From: Myxococcota bacterium
GTDB taxonomy: Bacteria; Myxococcota; XYA12-FULL-58-9; JALHOP01
Length of the DNA stretch: 49,200 bases
NCBI GenBank assembly: GCA_041288095.1
Contig: JBGGMJ010000181.1
Location: 1-49,200 of the forward strand
Direction of reading: 5' to 3'
Below, piece after piece: positions 28,930 to 34,880 of the stretch. The position numbers and the translations under genes were made by a program. Under the pieces are notes generated by a model. It worked only from the letters and a program-made list of their open reading frames with translations. It was not told where the DNA came from and did not search any database. The number at the start of each line of letters is the position of its first letter. Positions within the stretch are counted from its first letter, which is position 1.

Positions 28930-29088
28930 ATGGCTCAGCCTGCAACCAACATCGTGAACCTCGACCAGTACCGTGAGACCAGGGAGCGCAAGGCCATGCG
29001 CCCGCGCTCCAACGGGCCTGTCATGATGTGTTGTTGGGTTTTCGTGCCCGTGGTTGTGCCGGCGGCTTACGTCGCCCGTTGGGCATGA
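28930..29088 (+). CDS. Small 52-aa protein or leader peptide with MMCC motif (not in ORF track)
   Basis: GGAG RBS; MAQPATNIVNLDQYRETRERKAMRPRSNGPVMMCCWVFVPVVVPAAYVARWA; stop overlaps the regulator start as ATGA. Confidence 0.7.
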   Translation: MAQPATNIVNLDQYRETRERKAMRPRSNGPVMMCCWVFVPVVVPAAYVARWA

Positions 29089-29765
29089 AGTCGGTCCGCG
29101 ACAACTCGGCGAAAAAGAAATCCAAGGCCGCCTCAGAGAAGGAGCCGGCCGTCGCTCCCAAACAGGAGTGGGGCTACGAGGGCGGTCCTGCGGGGAACGG
29201 GGATCTCCCCGCCGTCGTCGGCGCCAACTTGCGCCGGCTGCGCACCAAACGCGGCCTTTCGCTCGAGCGGCTGGCGCAAGCATCCGGCGTGAGTCGCGCC
29301 ATGCTCGGGCAAATCGAGCTCGGTCAGAGCGCGCCGACCATCAACGTGGTCTGGAAGATCGCAAGCGCGCTCGAGGTGCCGTTCTCGGCTCTGCTCAAGG
29401 CGCGCGGCACTTCCGGCACCAATCTCATGCGGGCCGCGCAGTCCAAGGTGTTGACCAGCCACGACGGCACCTTCAGCTCGCGCGCATTGTTCCCATTCGA
29501 CGAGCCGCGCCGCGTGGAGTTCTACGAGCTGCGCTTCAAGCCGCGGGCGAGCGAAAACGCCGAAGCGCACTCGCCCGGCACGATCGAGAACCTCGTGGTC
29601 ACCTCGGGGACGCTCGAGATCGAGGCAGGCGGCCAGACGCACGTGCTGAGCGCGGGCGACGCCATCGTCTTCGAAGCCGACGTGGCGCACGTCTATCGCA
29701 ACGTCTCCGATCGCGAAGTCGTCGCCTACCTGGTCATGACCTACGCGGAACAGCTGGGCGGCTAG
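29085..29765 (+). CDS. XRE-family HTH + cupin transcriptional regulator (SutR/YdcN-like)
   Basis: NLRRLRTKRGLSLERLAQASGVSRAMLGQIELGQSAPTINVVWKIA; cupin HSPGTIENLVV...GDAIVFEADVAHVYRN. Confidence 0.9.
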   Translation: MKSVRDNSAKKKSKAASEKEPAVAPKQEWGYEGGPAGNGDLPAVVGANLRRLRTKRGLSLERLAQASGVSRAMLGQIELGQSAPTINVVWKIASALEVPFSALLKARGTSGTNLMRAAQSKVLTSHDGTFSSRALFPFDEPRRVEFYELRFKPRASENAEAHSPGTIENLVVTSGTLEIEAGGQTHVLSAGDAIVFEADVAHVYRNVSDREVVAYLVMTYAEQLGG

Positions 29766-29799: not shown

Positions 29800-30279
29800 C
29801 TACTTACCGTCGGCCGGCATCGCCATCATCATCATGCCGCCGCAGCTCATCATCATCGGCATGCCCATCGCCATCATGGCGTTCATGGCGTTGCAGCGCT
29901 CGGCCATCATGTCCATGTCCATGCCTTCGCCCGGCATCATGGTGCAGACCATGCCCTGCTTGGTCATGGTGCAGGTCATGCGCGCCATCATCGGCGCCGA
30001 CATCATCATGGGCATCGGCATCATGCCGTTCATCATCATGGGGTTCATGCCGCCCATCATCATCGGCATCATCCCGTTCATCATCATGGGATTCATGCCG
30101 CCCATCATCATGGGGTTCATCATCATCGGGTTCATGCCCATCATCGGCATCCCCATCCCCATCATCGGGTTCATGCCACCCATCATTGGCATCATCCCGT
30201 TCATCGCGCCCATCATGCTGGGGTTCATCATCATCGGGCTCATCGGCATCGGGCCCATGTTCATCGGCATAGCGGTCAT
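29800..30279 (-). CDS. Extremely methionine-rich protein (about 73 Met and 4 Cys in 159 aa)
   Basis: GAGGA RBS; GGMNPMMMN-type repeats followed by a Cys-containing C-terminal domain; Met counted by hand. Confidence 0.85.
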   Translation of the reverse strand: MTAMPMNMGPMPMSPMMMNPSMMGAMNGMMPMMGGMNPMMGMGMPMMGMNPMMMNPMMMGGMNPMMMNGMMPMMMGGMNPMMMNGMMPMPMMMSAPMMARMTCTMTKQGMVCTMMPGEGMDMDMMAERCNAMNAMMAMGMPMMMSCGGMMMMAMPADGK

Positions 30280-30485
30280 CGTTCGATCCTCGTTGTGTGC
30301 GTCGTTACGAAACAACGCGTGCACTTAAAGGCTGTATCGCTTGCGACGCAATGCGTCGTTGCCCGGCGCTGTCGCTTTCCTCCGCGACAACGGACGTGTT
30401 GCAGCCATGAACGGATGATGGTTGTGCATGCCTCCGTAAGAGCGGAGGTCCCGATGCCGACAGCGGACGAAGGCAGCGCCGTTCG

Positions 30486-32879
30486 CTAGGCGTTCTTGCC
30501 CATCGTGAACGCTTGCACGCGCTTGTCCCAATCACGGGCCGTCATGCCCAGCTTGCGCACCGACTCGCGTTGCAGCGGCGAGAGAGTGACGTACGCGGTG
30601 ACCATGACCATCGGCCACTTGGCGGCCGGCGTGTCCTTGGTGTCCCAGCTCTGCTGGTTCCAGCCGAGGTTCTTCAGGAGCGCGAGCTCGGTGCGGCTCA
30701 TCGACTTCCAGTTGAGCGGCAAAAGCGCGTCCATGGTGCGGACCGAGCTGCCGTCCTTCACCAGCGGCTTACCGGTGTACGGCGCGCCTTCGATGTCGCC
30801 AGTGCTTTGCGAGATCTCGGCGGGCAGCGCTTCGGCGCCCGGTGCCTTGACCGCGGAGTGATCGACGCCGCCGAGGTCGCGCTCGAAGGTGCGAGGGATG
30901 CCCCAGCCATCGACCTTGCCCTGCTGCCGGCTCTGCGGCCGTGTCCGCGTCTGCGAGCCTTCCTGCCCATGCGGCCGCGGTGCGACGTCGGTCTGGGTCA
31001 TCTCGGTTGCCGGCCCTTGCTCGACCGAGGTGATGTCGCCCTCGGCTCTACGAGCCCGTGAGCCGCGGGCTCCCATGAGCTGCTGCGTCACTTGCTGCGC
31101 GACCTGCCGGCTCACTTGCTCGGCGACTTGGCGCGCCACTTGGTCGGCGATGCTCTGTGCGATCTCACCGGCGTTGGCACCGCCCGGCGTCACCTGTTGC
31201 AGCGCGTTCGCGACGTGCCGCTGGATGTCCATCGAGCCGACGCGACCACCGATCTGGCGATCGGAGAGCTGACCGCGGAACGGCGTCGACGCGAGCTTCT
31301 CCTGCATCTCGGGCGACTGCTGCGGTCCCGAGGCCGCCTTCATATAGGCCGCTGTAGCGGTCTGCCGGCCGATCGGAGACGCCGAGTTCGGGTTGAAGTA
31401 CTTCGGCTTGCGACCAATGGCACGGCGCTCGTTGGCAATGGCGCGACGCTTGGCCGCCGGCATGCGCTTGGTGCGCAGCTCGCGCGCTTTCTGGCGCTGC
31501 AGCTTCTGCAGGCCGTCGAGCTTGTCGCCCATCTCCTGCGTCTTGGCGCCGATGAGCGCGCGGTCGTCGTCGGACAACCCGTTGAGATCGATGTCCTCGG
31601 GCTTGCGCAGCGTCTGCAGGCTGTTGACGTCCTCGAAGTACTTGGCGCTGCCGAGCTTCTTCTCGGCCTGCTCGTAGACGCGAGAGAGCTGCGTGTAGAA
31701 CTGGATGATCTTGGCGCGGTTCTGCGAGCGCACCTTGCCGGCGTCGTCGGGGTCTAAGCCCTCGGTCGACTGCATGCGCGGCGCCCTCGGCAGCGCCGAG
31801 GTCTTGGACTGCTTGAGCGCCGCCTCGGGGTCGATGCCGCCGGCTCCACCGCGCTGCACCTGCGAGGCGACCTTGGCGAGGAGCTTCGAGACCTGACCTT
31901 CGCGCGCCGGGAACTGCGGGCTCTGCAAGGTGCCGAGCAGCTTGTCGGTGATGGCGCGGAACTCGCTCGGCTTACCGCTGCCGATGGTCGCGAAGAAGCG
32001 GCCCTTATTCTGAGCGCTCTGCGTCTTGAACCGGTTGTGCGTCGCCAGCTTGTCGAAGCCCTCGCGGACCTCACCGGTGCCGTTCGCTTTGGCGAGCAGC
32101 TCGGTCGACTTGCCGCGGGCGAAGCTCGGGAGCTTGGCGATGTGCGGCTGCTGGATGAATGCGTCGACGTTGGTCATCGCGCCGGTGTCGCCGGGCCGCC
32201 GCGTCGCCATGCTCAGGGCGGCGCGCTGGGCGTTGCCGTTCGCGCCCTTGTTGGCGAGCGTGCCGAGCATGTCGCCGGCCTTCTTGAGCGAATCGGTCTT
32301 GCCGTCGCCCATGCGAGCCATGGCGAAGCGCAAGAACTCGTTTTTCGCCTTCTGGTCCGCTTTTGCAGACTGCATGAAGCGCGATTGCAAGACATCCGAG
32401 ATGAGCTTTTCGGACTTCGGATTGTCGATGACCGCGGCGTGGATGGTCGCGGCCTGCGGCGCGGTCTGCACCGCCTGCTTGAACGACGGCGCGTTCGCGA
32501 GCCGGTTCATGGCGTTGGCGGACTCGGTACCCTTCTTGGGGTTCGAAGCCATCGCCTCGCGGAAGAGATTCTTTTGCGCCTCGGTGAGCTTCTCTTGCAG
32601 CGCGCGGTTGTTCTGCCAGTCGTGCAAGGCATGCTGCGCCTCGGGACCGGCGTGACCGCCGAGGATCTGCTGCATGCGCGAATCGACGCGCTCGTTACGC
32701 GAGAAGGTCTCGCGCTGGACGACGCTTTCTTTGATGACCTCGCGTTTTACCGCCGCTTTTTTCTCGACCTCGCGACGCGCCGCCGCATCGGCCTCGCTGC
32801 CCATCTGCGTGCGCTGATAGGCAAGCTGGGCATCGTTTACGAGGCTCTGGACTTGGGCGTCGACCGCGTCGATTGGCAT
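30486..32879 (-). CDS. Hypothetical 797-aa helical protein with C-terminal Trp-containing tandem repeat
   Basis: Long ORF, Q/K/A-rich, no signal peptide or TM segment; TATGCT 8 nt upstream of the ATG. Confidence 0.85.
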   Translation of the reverse strand: MPIDAVDAQVQSLVNDAQLAYQRTQMGSEADAAARREVEKKAAVKREVIKESVVQRETFSRNERVDSRMQQILGGHAGPEAQHALHDWQNNRALQEKLTEAQKNLFREAMASNPKKGTESANAMNRLANAPSFKQAVQTAPQAATIHAAVIDNPKSEKLISDVLQSRFMQSAKADQKAKNEFLRFAMARMGDGKTDSLKKAGDMLGTLANKGANGNAQRAALSMATRRPGDTGAMTNVDAFIQQPHIAKLPSFARGKSTELLAKANGTGEVREGFDKLATHNRFKTQSAQNKGRFFATIGSGKPSEFRAITDKLLGTLQSPQFPAREGQVSKLLAKVASQVQRGGAGGIDPEAALKQSKTSALPRAPRMQSTEGLDPDDAGKVRSQNRAKIIQFYTQLSRVYEQAEKKLGSAKYFEDVNSLQTLRKPEDIDLNGLSDDDRALIGAKTQEMGDKLDGLQKLQRQKARELRTKRMPAAKRRAIANERRAIGRKPKYFNPNSASPIGRQTATAAYMKAASGPQQSPEMQEKLASTPFRGQLSDRQIGGRVGSMDIQRHVANALQQVTPGGANAGEIAQSIADQVARQVAEQVSRQVAQQVTQQLMGARGSRARRAEGDITSVEQGPATEMTQTDVAPRPHGQEGSQTRTRPQSRQQGKVDGWGIPRTFERDLGGVDHSAVKAPGAEALPAEISQSTGDIEGAPYTGKPLVKDGSSVRTMDALLPLNWKSMSRTELALLKNLGWNQQSWDTKDTPAAKWPMVMVTAYVTLSPLQRESVRKLGMTARDWDKRVQAFTMGKNA

Positions 32880-32941: not shown

Positions 32942-32988
32942 AAAAAGACACTGGCCGGGCAGACCCTCGTCGGGTGGCCCAGCCAGTG
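32942..32988 (-). terminator. Probable intrinsic terminator downstream of the filament-like gene
   Basis: Imperfect hairpin closed by CACTGGC/GCCAGTG, followed by TCTTTTT on the minus strand. Confidence 0.6.
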
Positions 32989-33012: not shown

Positions 33013-33041
33013 AAACGGCGGCCGTACGGGCGCGGCCGCCG
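33013..33041 (-). terminator. GC-rich hairpin just after the stop of 33054..33959
   Basis: 9-bp stem CGGCGGCCG/CGGCCGCCG with 8-nt loop and short TTT tail. Confidence 0.5.
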
Positions 33042-33053
33042 AACCGATGAGAC

Positions 33054-33959
33054 TTAACCGCTGATCTTGCGGAGAACCGCCATCGCGGTGTCGTGCAGCA
33101 TCTTCGAGATGTTCGACATCATCTGCAGGGTCTGCTGCTGCTTCTGCAGCATGTTCTGCAAGTCGACGTTCGCGAGCTGAGCGTCGTCACCGACCGAGTT
33201 GAGCTTCTGCTCGAGGTCGTCGATGTAGTTCGACAGACCTTCCTTGGTCGTCGGGTCGTCGAGGCCCTGGTCGAGCTCGCGGACCGCCACGAACTGGCCG
33301 GTCTGCGTGTCGATGGCCGGCGTACCCGACCATGGGAACAGCAGCTCGTCCGGATCCTGGCCGTTGGCGACCAGCTCCGCCGCCAAGTCGATCGCCGCGT
33401 TGTCCTCTTCACCGGCGTGAGCCGAGAGGATCTTGCGCATCTCGGTGATGTCGTTACGAATCTGCTTCTTCAGGTCGTTGTAGAACTGAACCTTCTGCGC
33501 GTAGAAGTTCAGGTCTTGCGTGCTCGAGAGGTAAGCCTCGCGGAGCACCTGTTGCACCAACGCGTTCACGTCTTCGGTGCCGTTGACCTGCAAACCCGAG
33601 ACGAAGTCAGCCCAGCGGCCCTGGATGTTGGCGTTGCTCGATGTGCCGTTGGCAAGCGCCGAGGCAATCGCGCTCAACGTACCGCGCGCCGAGGGATCGA
33701 GCTTGGCGAGCGACTCGTTCTGGCCTTCGTTTTCGATGGCCAGACCCAAGCTCGCGAGCTCGTTCTTGTAGAGGTTGAACGTCGCGTCGTCGGCGAGGTT
33801 CTCCCAGTTGGTCGTGCCAATGACTTGGCCTTGAGCATCCAGTGCCGTCAGACGTGCACGATCGAATGTGCCGTTTCCGTCGACGTCCTGGAACGTGTAA
33901 CGGACGCCGTCTCCGGCGCTCGTATATGACTGCGTACGCGTCAGGTTATTCGTTGCCAT
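33054..33959 (-). CDS. Putative T3SS filament/needle-tip-type protein (EspA/SseB/Bsp22-like C-terminus)
   Basis: Strong AGGAG RBS; C-terminus LNSVGDDAQLANVDLQNMLQKQQQTLQMMSNISKMLHDTAMAVLRKISG; near a SycD-like chaperone. Confidence 0.65.
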   Translation of the reverse strand: MATNNLTRTQSYTSAGDGVRYTFQDVDGNGTFDRARLTALDAQGQVIGTTNWENLADDATFNLYKNELASLGLAIENEGQNESLAKLDPSARGTLSAIASALANGTSSNANIQGRWADFVSGLQVNGTEDVNALVQQVLREAYLSSTQDLNFYAQKVQFYNDLKKQIRNDITEMRKILSAHAGEEDNAAIDLAAELVANGQDPDELLFPWSGTPAIDTQTGQFVAVRELDQGLDDPTTKEGLSNYIDDLEQKLNSVGDDAQLANVDLQNMLQKQQQTLQMMSNISKMLHDTAMAVLRKISG

Positions 33960-34118
33960 GATCAAATCTCCTAAAAAGAAAGGTCAAAAACTCTACTTCG
34001 AGCGTGGCCGGGGGCTGGTCGGCCGTTTTGGCGGACTCCTTCGAGTACGCCAAGCCCTGTATCCGCTATCGCGACACGAACGAACCGGCGGGCTGTGCCG
34101 AGTCGACGTGCCTGTCCG

Positions 34119-34880
34119 TTAAGGCGTATTGACTGGCGGCAAACCGGTGCCGGGCGAATACGGCATCGCAATGGCCGGGTTGGCGCGGCGGGCGAAGTCG
34201 CTGCCGTCGCCGACGGTACCGAGCACCATCGTGAAGGCGCGAACGATCGTCTTGAGGTCCGACGTATCGCTCACACGCACTTCGCTGTTGCGCCACTGCA
34301 CGCGCAGCGACAGGCGTTGATCCGTGCTGGCCGTGGTGTCGCTCGTTTGCGTATTGCCACCGACGCGCATCTGCTTCTTGGTGCTCTCGCGCTTGGCCGC
34401 CTCGTCGGCGTCGAGCTTGTTCTGCGACGCTTCGGTAACCTTGGCGATGCTCTCGTACTTCTCGCGAGCCATCTTGAGCTCGGCCTCTTGGCGCTCTGCA
34501 TCACGACGAACCGCCGCGGGCATGTCGCTGTTCTCGAGGCGACGGATCTTGTCCTGCAGCTCGCCGATCTTGTTGGCGATCTGCTGGCTTCTGTTGTTCA
34601 GCTCGTCGATGCGACCGCGGATCTTGTTGACCTGATCGTTGTAGCGGTTCATCGCGTCTTGATACGCGGCGATCGCGGCGTCATCGGCACCGGCGCCCGG
34701 GGCCGCCGGCGGCTTCAGGCTTTGCAGCTCGTTCACCAGGTTCTGGATGGCCTGACCCAGGCCTTCGAGCTCTTTGCCCAGGCCTTGGATTTGCTGGCTG
34801 ACGCCCTGAATCTGCTGCGAGACCAGCTCAGCCGAGCTGTGAATAGCATTCTGCCTACCAAGGCCGTGTGTTGCGCTCAT
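34119..34880 (-). CDS. Coiled-coil hairpin protein, putative T3SS-associated secreted protein
   Basis: AGGGAG RBS; heptads SQQIQGVSQQIQGL..., Pro-rich turn, then DDAAIAAYQDAMNRYN; function inferred from context. Confidence 0.7.
   Translation of the reverse strand: MSATHGLGRQNAIHSSAELVSQQIQGVSQQIQGLGKELEGLGQAIQNLVNELQSLKPPAAPGAGADDAAIAAYQDAMNRYNDQVNKIRGRIDELNNRSQQIANKIGELQDKIRRLENSDMPAAVRRDAERQEAELKMAREKYESIAKVTEASQNKLDADEAAKRESTKKQMRVGGNTQTSDTTASTDQRLSLRVQWRNSEVRVSDTSDLKTIVRAFTMVLGTVGDGSDFARRANPAIAMPYSPGTGLPPVNTP

Follow-up and report, generated by a model that had tools for sequence, protein, structure and literature searches.

The question raised by this locus is whether a hydrophilic protein, which a preliminary description had read as an EspA/Bsp22-like polymerising subunit of an undescribed surface filament, indeed belongs to a T3SS (type III secretion system) and, if so, at which position of the apparatus it might act. 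We consider it best explained as a T3SS-exported tip/filament-class paralogue, found in one Myxococcota order and drawn from a wider hairpin family, a reading that we hold tentatively, at somewhat less than an even chance.

The gene, its flanks and the predicted fold of its product

The gene lies on the minus strand (a detail absent from the preliminary description) of the window (the whole 49,200-nucleotide stretch analysed here), where the following elements were delineated around it:

33054..33959, minus strand: target CDS, 301 aa (ORF listing and translation; 857 homologues)
33960..34118, minus strand: upstream intergenic gap of 159 nt, with AGGAG at 33968-33972 and a T-rich run
33016..33041, minus strand: downstream hairpin 1, a 9-10 bp G+C stem (folding, recurrence and covariation)
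32942..32988, minus strand: downstream hairpin 2 (itself at 32949-32988), a 12-bp outer stem and an inner stem, then UCUUUUU (same basis as hairpin 1)

The frame is a real gene with an ATG start at 33959, and its orthologues share a MATNNLTRTQ-type N-terminus, i.e., the same start. Its flanks are as initially described: the AGGAG ribosome-binding site is placed 8 nt 5′ of the ATG and is preceded by the T-rich run (U-rich in the transcript), while folding of the downstream region recovers the two tandem hairpins (z-score -3.96, with 0 of 200 shuffles as good). A simple terminator scan of the target region listed none; the hairpins came from the folding, and both are present again in three orthologous loci, with compensatory changes in five of the 26 hairpin pairs across the four sequences compared. 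The one sigma-70-like match returned by a promoter scan overlaps the start codon and is hence not credible as the promoter of this gene. Judged against a reference set of only six genes, the codon adaptation index of the target (0.682) stands at the 90th percentile among 4185 ORFs from a crude gene call, and those of the three upstream genes at the 37th-59th. The signs of high expression emphasized in the preliminary description thus appear modest, as read from the sequence.

The product is acidic (42 D+E versus 22 K+R) and hydrophilic, and neither a signal peptide nor a transmembrane or hydrophobic segment was found in it. The AF2 model (pLDDT 78.9, pTM 0.56) predicts a small beta domain at residues 8-85 followed by two long helices that pair as an antiparallel hairpin; the elements of the model map as follows:

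33861..33887, minus strand: codons of DVDGNGTFD, residues 25-33, within the N-terminal beta domain (motif, AF2 model and homologues)
33420..33569, minus strand: residues 131-180, helix 1, which makes up the first arm of the hairpin and is conserved (alignment and AF2 model)
33246..33419, minus strand: residues 181-238, the acidic insert of variable sequence located at the tip of the hairpin (alignment and composition)
33060..33245, minus strand: helix 2, residues 239-300, the near-invariant C-terminal helix GDDAQLANVDLQNMLQKQQQTLQMMSNISKMLHDTAMAVLRKI (AF2 model and conservation)

The two modelled helices coincide with the internal and C-terminal stretches originally singled out as helical, and the model bears out a core of two paired long helices and an exposed, variable insert. 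The latter, 58 residues without a recognisable domain, is indeed acidic (13 acidic against two basic or His residues) and unconserved in an alignment of 113 sequences. The N-terminal loop, which had been likened to calcium-binding sites, is not a chance motif, since many of 45 homologues have a D-x-[DN]-x-[DN]-G-x-x-D loop in the corresponding alignment columns; it is probably an EF-hand/dockerin-like Ca-binding-type loop. A homo-oligomer prediction with four copies of residues 105-301 and the family alignment, run without controls, scored 0.00, a value that weighs neither way on self-association.

A chaperone-linked operon and a homologue in the translocon tip slot

The target is the fourth gene of an operon that is preceded by a pilus cluster:

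35956..36441, minus strand: 161-aa TPR protein, LcrH/SycD-type T3SS class II chaperone, first gene of the operon (TIGR02552)
35190..35918, minus strand: 242-aa hydrophilic protein, no family (co-conserved with the target in 13 loci)
34119..34931, minus strand: 270-aa coiled-coil protein, no specific family (ORF listing and HMM searches)
30486..32879, minus strand: 797-aa basic hydrophilic protein, no family, directly downstream of the target (co-conserved in 14 loci)
36532..43990, minus strand: type IV pilus minor-pilin/PilY1 cluster directly upstream, coding for an N_methyl pilin, PilW, PilX, PilY1 (1534 aa) and a GspH/FimT-like pilin

The TPR protein matches TIGR02552 with an E-value of 3.7e-26 and 91.4 bits, which does not reach the curated cut-off of 104.8, and it matches this LcrH/SycD model far better than the generic TPR models. 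In 12 related loci its gene is found upstream of the family member and in the same orientation, and the order TPR, 242-aa protein, family member and ~770-aa protein is kept in 12-14 of them; a GspH-like pilin gene adjoins in seven related loci and PilY1 in six. The start of the 270-aa protein is uncertain, with a TTG at 34931 and an ATG 17 codons on. All proteins of the operon are hydrophilic, none being a hydrophobic translocator, and the operon sits outside any T3SS cluster. The class II chaperone-binding motif PxLxxP is absent from all six proteins scanned for it (five from the operon and one, of 673 aa, encoded downstream).

A T3SS setting, as assumed in the preliminary description, is nonetheless evident in this lineage from the LcrH/SycD-type chaperone in the operon and the core genes for SctV, SctU and SctJ in the same genome. 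A separate translocon operon, on a different contig, codes for a 393-aa protein, a tandem LcrH protein (130.6 bits), an SseC-like protein (PF04888, E 8.5e-11), a second translocator-like protein and an SseD-like protein. The 393-aa protein fills the SseB/EspA/LcrV (SctA) slot of this operon, and profile comparison indicates that the target family is distantly homologous to it: hhalign aligns the family profile to this protein over both helices with a probability of 95.2% (E 2.6e-8), and to a four-sequence alignment of its orthologues with 96.4% (E 1.2e-9). Two control proteins of this genome, one needle-like (271 aa) and one SctI-like, reached 1.1% and 2.0%, respectively.

The kinship with EspA suggested at the outset thus survives in one form, as profile homology to the protein in the EspA/SseB/LcrV slot of the target's own genome, and is unsupported in another, as membership in the EspA, Bsp22 or SctF families. 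The target had no match to the EspA, LcrV, IpaD, Bsp22-type or needle HMMs; with EspA/SseB (PF03433) there was none at E<=0.01 and none even at E<=1, and PF03433 is not among the 25 families most matched by the 113 family members. The proposed needle-like character of the C-terminus retains a sub-threshold echo, in that PF09392 is matched by 21 of the 113 members at E<=1 (best 0.023), the target itself having no match. Sequence searches of the PDB returned nothing for the target, the tip-slot protein or the needle-like protein, and the best hit of the family profile had an E-value of 0.12. Foldseek against the PDB likewise gave nothing at E<=1e-3; its weak rows include an EspA filament chain (7khw, E 0.33), IpaD chains (E 0.1-0.29) and flagellin core chains, with TM-scores of only 0.17-0.32 to LcrV/IpaD-type tip proteins. 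All structural matches, by Foldseek and VIA alike, are antiparallel coiled coils, i.e., generic hairpins. The best match in the wide VIA search (IpaB 74-224, Z 9.8) is tied with many unrelated coiled coils and is not taken as evidence of kinship; this Z lies in the range that the tool regards as common for long helices. A protein-language search, which we treat as a lead only, placed among its neighbour clusters (scores 0.88-0.89) two in which EspA and LcrV, respectively, account for 12% of the members.

A widespread hairpin family and the readings it allows

The hairpin defines a family of 1649 clusters at 50% identity, for which the libraries searched hold no Pfam or NCBIfam model. Nearly every position of its C-terminal helix, polar ones included, is conserved among 259 distinct sequences, and most positions of a 45-residue helix are conserved at ~95% or more across bacterial phyla and Archaea. 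A large model-less family with such helix conservation and no known partner is unexplained, whichever reading is adopted. The target's own genome has three to four further paralogues, and the genomes of the order have up to at least eight each (with the best eight matches scored). At the position of the insert these paralogues bear DUF1521, EF-hand or dockerin-like domains, DUF1521 standing between the two helices in some family members; an HMM search did not find it in the target. According to PMC6506597, DUF1521 is the Ca-triggered domain of the T3SS-secreted proteins NopE1 and NopE2 and folds in a Ca-dependent manner outside the cell. The longest members reach 1206 aa. Downstream of the longer paralogues, at a distance of 9-11 nt, lies a gene for a ~154-aa TPR protein in five of the six loci holding the TPR gene; two of these proteins, one from the target's genome and one from a further locus, are both weak SctY/LcrH matches. 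In one Myxococcota order, the family is multi-copy and encoded beside LcrH/SycD- or SctY-like TPR chaperones.

A literature text search with three peptide motifs of the C-terminal helix found them in none of the papers covered, and the titles and abstract openings of the listed publications on DUF1521 and type III secretion yielded nothing on the family, which is no proof that it is undescribed. A phage origin was considered and set aside within the collections used: none of the 258 pattern matches in the viral contigs scanned was a relative, and the target has no PHROGs match. A tblastn search of 72,556 plasmids was also without a match.

Within the order, all 22 sampled genomes have both the family and FHIPEP (SctV/FlhA); since FHIPEP is present in 268 of 301 genomes sampled across the phylum, this co-occurrence says little. 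Beyond it, relatives are spread over at least 13 further phylum-level labels: among 76 loci retained from species-representative genomes, 37 carry non-Myxococcota labels (four of them archaeal), and the family is also seen in Actinomycetota, Acidobacteriota, Bacteroidota, Chloroflexota and Archaea. Ten non-Myxococcota genomes that have a relative were tested, and nine of them lack FHIPEP; taken as a whole, the family is therefore not tied to the T3SS. The preliminary description had tied its own reading to homologues residing in T3SS-bearing genomes; this holds for the target's orthologue group, which is found only in the T3SS-bearing order, and fails in part for the family at large. Tail-tube domains of PF06841 lie near a family member in two, and are fused to one in a single case, of 14 non-Myxococcota loci inspected, and they were found in five of ten such genomes (four over the cut-off) versus 0 of 14 controls. 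A link to contractile injection on this basis is too partial to build on.

Under the tip/filament-class reading that we favor, the TPR chaperone would hold the hairpin soluble in the cytoplasm, and export by the T3SS would proceed through the Ser/Thr/Asn-rich N-terminus of the target. Through the near-invariant hairpin, the protein would then assemble as a subunit of the tip or filament class, at the apparatus's distal end or past it, with the N-domain and the insert facing outward and perhaps folding or stiffening upon binding Ca2+. The inserts of the paralogues (DUF1521/MIIA, EF-hand and dockerin-like) would represent alternative heads on one core. Against this explanation, one may observe that the canonical tip slot is already occupied by another protein, the 393-aa one.

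The phyletic spread, embracing many phyla and Archaea, and the rarity of FHIPEP among the tested genomes outside Myxococcota also suit an extracytoplasmic self-assembling protein with one general role across Bacteria and Archaea, such as a surface filament, an oligomeric coat or an alpha-helical pore former, that operates independently of any T3SS. The TPR neighbour would then be merely a dedicated anti-aggregation chaperone, LcrH-like by common descent. Such a role would accommodate the hydrophobic, Sec-like N-terminus seen in ~13 of 35 non-Myxococcota proteins, the presence of pore-former and translocator coiled coils among the structural neighbours, and the conservation of all helix faces, which fits a buried assembly interface. 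However, the target has no signal peptide, its TPR protein prefers a T3SS-specific model over the generic ones, the family is homologous to a protein within a bona fide translocon operon, and outside Myxococcota-like loci no conserved neighbour gene offers an alternative export route; on balance, we deem this reading somewhat unlikely. A broader synthesis, which we rate as unlikely, would make the hairpin the core from which extracellular oligomers or filaments of an undescribed class, in use across Bacteria and Archaea, are assembled, with constant helices and swappable heads in the manner of pilins and flagellins: most phyla would export it by Sec or other routes, and in one Myxococcota order it would have been coupled to the T3SS as a set of exchangeable tips or filaments, of which some have heads that cleave themselves when triggered by Ca. 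This set may cooperate with the tip cluster of the type IV pilus encoded directly upstream.

The abundance of paralogues with differing inserts, each with its own TPR neighbour, and the length of the largest members invite another interpretation, namely that the hairpin is a chaperone-binding and delivery scaffold and that the insert or the N-domain is the payload of a non-polymerising, polymorphic set of T3SS effectors, as hinted by the DUF1521 domains known from the secreted NopE proteins. Yet the insert of the target is short and has no recognisable domain, the short members consist mostly of the conserved part, the near-total conservation of the 45-residue helix exceeds what chaperone binding usually demands, and the homology points to a tip-slot protein rather than an effector; we hence consider it decidedly unlikely. 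Very improbable, in our estimate, is a regulator that stays in the cytoplasm as a partner of the class II chaperone, coupled to secretion and without an extracellular role: this would suit a leaderless, hydrophilic protein encoded with a class II-type chaperone, but no DNA-binding or known regulator domain was found in the target, the Ca-loop and the Ca-triggered inserts point to the cell exterior, some relatives have Sec-like leaders, and regulators do not typically form multi-copy families in which the inserts are hypervariable. If our preferred reading, a T3SS-exported tip/filament-class paralogue, is true, an uncultured Myxococcota order arms its T3SS with multi-copy tip/filament-class proteins that share one almost invariant core and differ in their heads, a way of gaining versatility towards targets that has not been described in injectisomes. 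A parallel would be provided by the interchangeable Tad-pilus tips of Myxococcus xanthus that depend on T3SS* (PMC12075869).

Relation to known tip, needle, effector and filament proteins

Like EspA/SseB, the target is a hydrophilic protein with a coiled-coil hairpin of two long helices around a variable middle, and a class II-type chaperone is encoded alongside. The known SseB system has the gene order sseB-sscA-sseC-sseD, and the distant homologue of the target similarly stands just upstream of SscA/LcrH-like, SseC-like and SseD-like genes. Unlike EspA/SseB, the target lacks a PF03433 match, has an extra N-terminal beta domain and a far more conserved C-terminal helix, belongs to an operon without translocators and has relatives in organisms without a T3SS. 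With LcrV/PcrV and IpaD/SipD/BipD it shares, in the AF2 model, a dumbbell-like layout, in which an N-terminal domain and a distal insert flank an antiparallel coiled coil at the centre; lcrV precedes lcrH in the known gene order, just as the tip-slot homologue precedes an LcrH-like gene. It differs from these tip proteins in having no Pfam match and low TM-scores. Its C-terminal helix ends in a needle-like pattern reminiscent of SctF/SctI, but SctF needle subunits have ~80 aa, whereas the target has 301 aa and no match to PF09392. The T3SS-secreted proteins NopE1/NopE2 and VIC_001052 (DUF1521/MIIA) have DUF1521 in common with some family members, though not with the target. Flagellar genes are not expected in the target's lineage. 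As an analogy only, there being no sequence relation found, the family recalls the design of flagellins and type IV pilins, with conserved terminal helices, a hypervariable middle and many paralogues.

Architecture and expression signals of the target protein

The target gene lies on the minus strand of the window (33054-33959, ATG start at 33959) and codes for a 301-aa protein, whose AlphaFold2 model (input, an alignment of 113 homologues; mean pLDDT 78.9, pTM 0.56) displays the following elements:

Residues 8-85: small beta domain
Residues 89-122: two short helices
Residues 131-180: helix 1, 50 residues
Residues 181-238: mixed insert
Residues 239-300: C-terminal helix, 62 residues

The internal and C-terminal helices that the preliminary description had placed on either side of a variable acidic insert are thus recovered in the model at 131-180 and 239-300. 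The insert is indeed acidic (13 acidic versus 2 basic or His residues; D+E 42 versus K+R 22 in the whole protein) and the stretch between the helices varies across the family. The Ca-binding-like loop DVDGNGTFD is likewise present, at residues 25-33 between two strands of the N-domain, and its D-x-[DN]-x-[DN]-G-x-x-D pattern is retained at the equivalent place in the alignment by many of the 45 homologues listed. In the target, no 19-residue stretch reaches the hydrophobicity of a membrane segment or signal peptide.

The 159 nt separating the target from the preceding gene contain an AGGAG (33968-33972; 8-nt spacer to the ATG) and a T-rich run, so that the upstream gap, U-rich stretch and RBS reported earlier are all found in the window sequence; in the alignment of homologues, the orthologues share the target's type of N-terminus. 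On folding, the 181-nt spacer 3′ of the target yields two hairpins in tandem, as previously described (z -3.96; 0/200 shuffles equally stable), and UCUUUUU follows the second. Three orthologous loci also have both hairpins (z -3.78, -5.92 and -2.95), with compensatory changes in 5 of 26 pairs among the four sequences compared; a consensus scan listed no terminator. The anatomy described is real, beyond chance. The signal of high expression is moderate: measured against a small reference set (EF-Tu, NusG, L11, L1, L10, L7/L12), the target CAI is 0.682 (90th percentile among 4185 crudely called ORFs). Among the same ORFs, the 797-aa gene downstream also reaches the 90th percentile, and the three operon genes upstream fall in the 37th-59th.

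The hairpin family and its operon

The target matched no Pfam, NCBIfam or PHROGs model and no PDB entry by sequence. A word-indexed search recovered 857 relatives, and an exhaustive search of representatives at 50% identity 1649 with E<=1e-3 (1062 with E<=1e-10), ranging from ~100 to 1206 aa. They share two conserved blocks: helix 1 (D-V-N-A-L-V-Q-x-V-L-R-E-A-Y ... K-V-x-F-Y-N-x-L-K-K-x-I-R) and the extreme C-terminal helix (G-D-D-A-Q-L-A-N-x-D-L-Q-N-x-L-Q-K-Q-Q-Q-T-L-Q-M-M-S-N-I-S-K-x-L-H-D-T-A-M-A-x-I-R-K-I), separated by a region variable in length and content, which in longer members houses DUF1521 (PF07481), EF-hand or dockerin-like segments. Across 259 distinct segments, most positions of the C-terminal consensus show ~95% or higher identity. 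Because this conservation extends to polar positions on every face, it fits a helix that would be enclosed within an assembly or gripped by a partner on all sides, and not a simple two-stranded coiled coil.

In the window, the target comes fourth in a run of minus-strand genes:

35956-36441, minus: 161-aa TPR protein, first gene
Second gene, minus: 242-aa protein
Third gene, minus: 270-aa coiled-coil protein
33054-33959, minus: target
30486-32879, minus: 797-aa protein, after the target

The TPR protein matches TIGR02552, the LcrH/SycD T3SS class II chaperones (E 3.7e-26; 91.4 bits versus the curated 104.8). No protein of the operon has a hydrophobic segment, and it therefore lacks a membrane translocator. 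We clustered ORFs all-against-all from 76 loci of species-representative genomes: in 12 loci the TPR gene lies upstream of the family member and shares its strand, the 242-aa gene is kept in 13 and a ~770-aa gene in 14, all bearing Myxococcota-type labels save one whose sole label is "uncultured bacterium". A ~180-aa gene flanks the longer paralogues in 7 loci, 3 of which have it directly upstream; a ~154-aa TPR gene lies 9-11 nt downstream of them in 5 of the 6 loci holding it, and its product shows weak SctY and LcrH matches in the two cases scanned.

The 797-aa protein, which has no family match, bears at its C-terminus two similar ~35-residue segments with an L-G-W/M ... W-D pattern. Further along, a 174-aa ORF (29800-30324, minus) with 73 methionines (42%) in MNPMMM-type repeats, also without a family match, adjoins an XRE-cupin regulator (29028-29765); an Ile-rich ORF occupies the opposite strand and GC3 exceeds 0.9 in both frames, so that either strand may be the coding one.

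Distribution within and beyond the phylum

Among 301 sampled Myxococcota genomes, the family is found in 22/22 of the window's order versus 5/279 others, the latter all weak matches. Its co-occurrence with T3SS inside the phylum is uninformative, since the SctV/FlhA marker FHIPEP is found in 268/301; one unpublished genome is flagged in this tally, and no conclusion here depends on it. Labels other than Myxococcota are attached to 37 of the 76 loci: Armatimonadota, Bacteroidota, Actinomycetota, Acidobacteriota, Gemmatimonadota, Chloroflexota, Nitrospirota, Planctomycetota, alpha-, beta- and gammaproteobacteria, and four archaeal records. Mis-binning does not account for them, because several lie on contigs of 0.4-1.7 Mb and, on one Thorarchaeota contig, L44e, eIF2-alpha and STT3 are beside the family gene. 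The preliminary description had tied its proposal to homologues residing with a T3SS; this holds only in part, FHIPEP being absent from 9 of the 10 genomes tested outside the phylum that have a family member. Of the non-Myxococcota proteins, ~13/35 begin with a hydrophobic, Sec-like stretch. Leaderless hairpins of ~180 aa also occur, and in a few proteins the C-terminal helix alone is retained behind unrelated N-terminal parts, among them a zinc ribbon and a tail-tube domain of the T4 gp19 type. No conserved neighbor gene was found among these loci, nor was the family found on the viral contigs or plasmids searched.

A ~180-aa leaderless subfamily with a conserved two-cysteine insert (L037, L043, L044, L039, L046, L058) spans records with the labels Actinomycetota, Acidobacteriota, Armatimonadota and Gammaproteobacteria, a spread suggestive of transfer between phyla. 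T4 gp19-type PF06841 tail-tube domains were noted at L079:6612-10685, L083:9459-10481 and L088:2-2014: in Nitrospirota- and Chthonomonadales-labelled loci, proteins with Tat- or Sec-like leaders that carry the domain adjoin family members, and in a Chloroflexota-labelled locus the domain and the family's C-terminal helix form one protein. Hcp and VgrG genes are close by in L079. The same Pfam domain is presumably carried by a prophage tail-like effector of Burkholderia gladioli. In that species, a prophage tail-like protein has been reported as a T3SS effector (PMC7372643).

Relation to T3SS tip proteins and pili

The target's own genome (212 contigs, ~90% complete) codes for a T3SS with the following components:

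C31: SctV
C41: SctU
C92: SctJ, with an ATPase-sized gene near it
C203:34945-45069 (L012): translocon operon
Operon, 1st: 393-aa tip-slot protein, in the SseB/EspA/LcrV position
Operon, 2nd: tandem LcrH/SycD chaperone, 130.6 bits, over cut-off
Operon, 3rd: 491-aa SseC-family protein (PF04888, E 8.5e-11)
Operon, 4th: 501-aa second translocator-like (SseC-like) protein
Operon, 5th: 347-aa protein, weak SseD match
Operon, also: 704-aa protein

Three to four more target paralogues are present as well, together with an SctI-like protein whose match to PF17001 is only weak (E 0.008). An ordinary ~80-aa needle gene was not found in this genome; a 271-aa protein open to the contig end (C196:70-885, L015) matches the needle model PF09392 with its last 34 residues (E 7.7e-5 genome-wise, 2.9e-4 by hmmscan).

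We take the translocon operon to have the order of sseB-sscA-sseC-sseD and of lcrV-lcrH-yopB-yopD; the tandem chaperone follows the tip-slot gene in each of four orthologues. By profile comparison, the family is a sister of this lineage's tip-slot protein, because hhalign aligns both helices at 95.2% (E 2.6e-8), or 96.4% (E 1.2e-9) against the four-orthologue alignment, versus same-genome controls of 1.1% (the needle-like 271-aa protein) and 2.0% (the SctI-like protein). Two further divergent relatives reach ~96%. This kinship is the strongest support for the earlier idea of an EspA/Bsp22-like polymerising filament subunit.

Direct comparison with known T3SS proteins was less favorable to that idea: Foldseek returned nothing at E<=1e-3 for the target model, with flagellin cores, V-ATPase stalks, prefoldin, IpaD and EspA as weak rows. 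The independent VIA search placed the IpaB N-terminal coiled coil on top (Z 9.8, rmsd 2.2 over 106 residues), a rank that it shares with many unrelated hairpins; this Z is under the tool's meaningful level for long helices. A protein-language search gave unnamed clusters first and, lower, a cluster with 12% EspA members and another with 12% LcrV members (scores 0.88-0.89), which are leads only. The proposed needle-like C-terminus has sub-threshold backing: PF09392 matches below threshold occur in 21 of 113 family members, the target not among them. Membership in the EspA, LcrV/IpaD or SctF families could not be demonstrated for the target.

For the target's own lineage, the best-supported reading, which we place a little short of an even chance, is a chaperoned, predicted T3SS-exported paralogue of the tip or filament class, in which the near-invariant hairpin would form an assembly or docking core and the N-domain and insert would be exposed and possibly Ca-responsive. 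A T3SS-independent self-assembly role for the hairpin family is, in our view, the less likely reading; in its favor, the same hairpin is widespread in organisms without a T3SS, and this is the most intriguing unexplained point.

Next to the target operon, 90 nt upstream of its TPR chaperone gene, is a pilin cluster:

36532-43990, minus: type IV pilus minor-pilin/PilY1 cluster (N_methyl pilin, PilW, PilX, a 1534-aa PilY1 with FG-GAP repeats, and a GspH/FimT-like pilin)

An ordinary FloA flotillin-like and NfeD gene pair (44888-47380, minus) lies upstream of it. The adjacency of pilin cluster and target operon recurs in related loci, with the GspH-like pilin in 7 and PilY1 in 6. This conserved adjacency is of interest given that interchangeable Tad-pilus tips depend on T3SS* in Myxococcus xanthus (PMC12075869); the pilins described there are of the TadE/F/G type, whereas those beside the target operon are of the PilVWX/PilY1 type.
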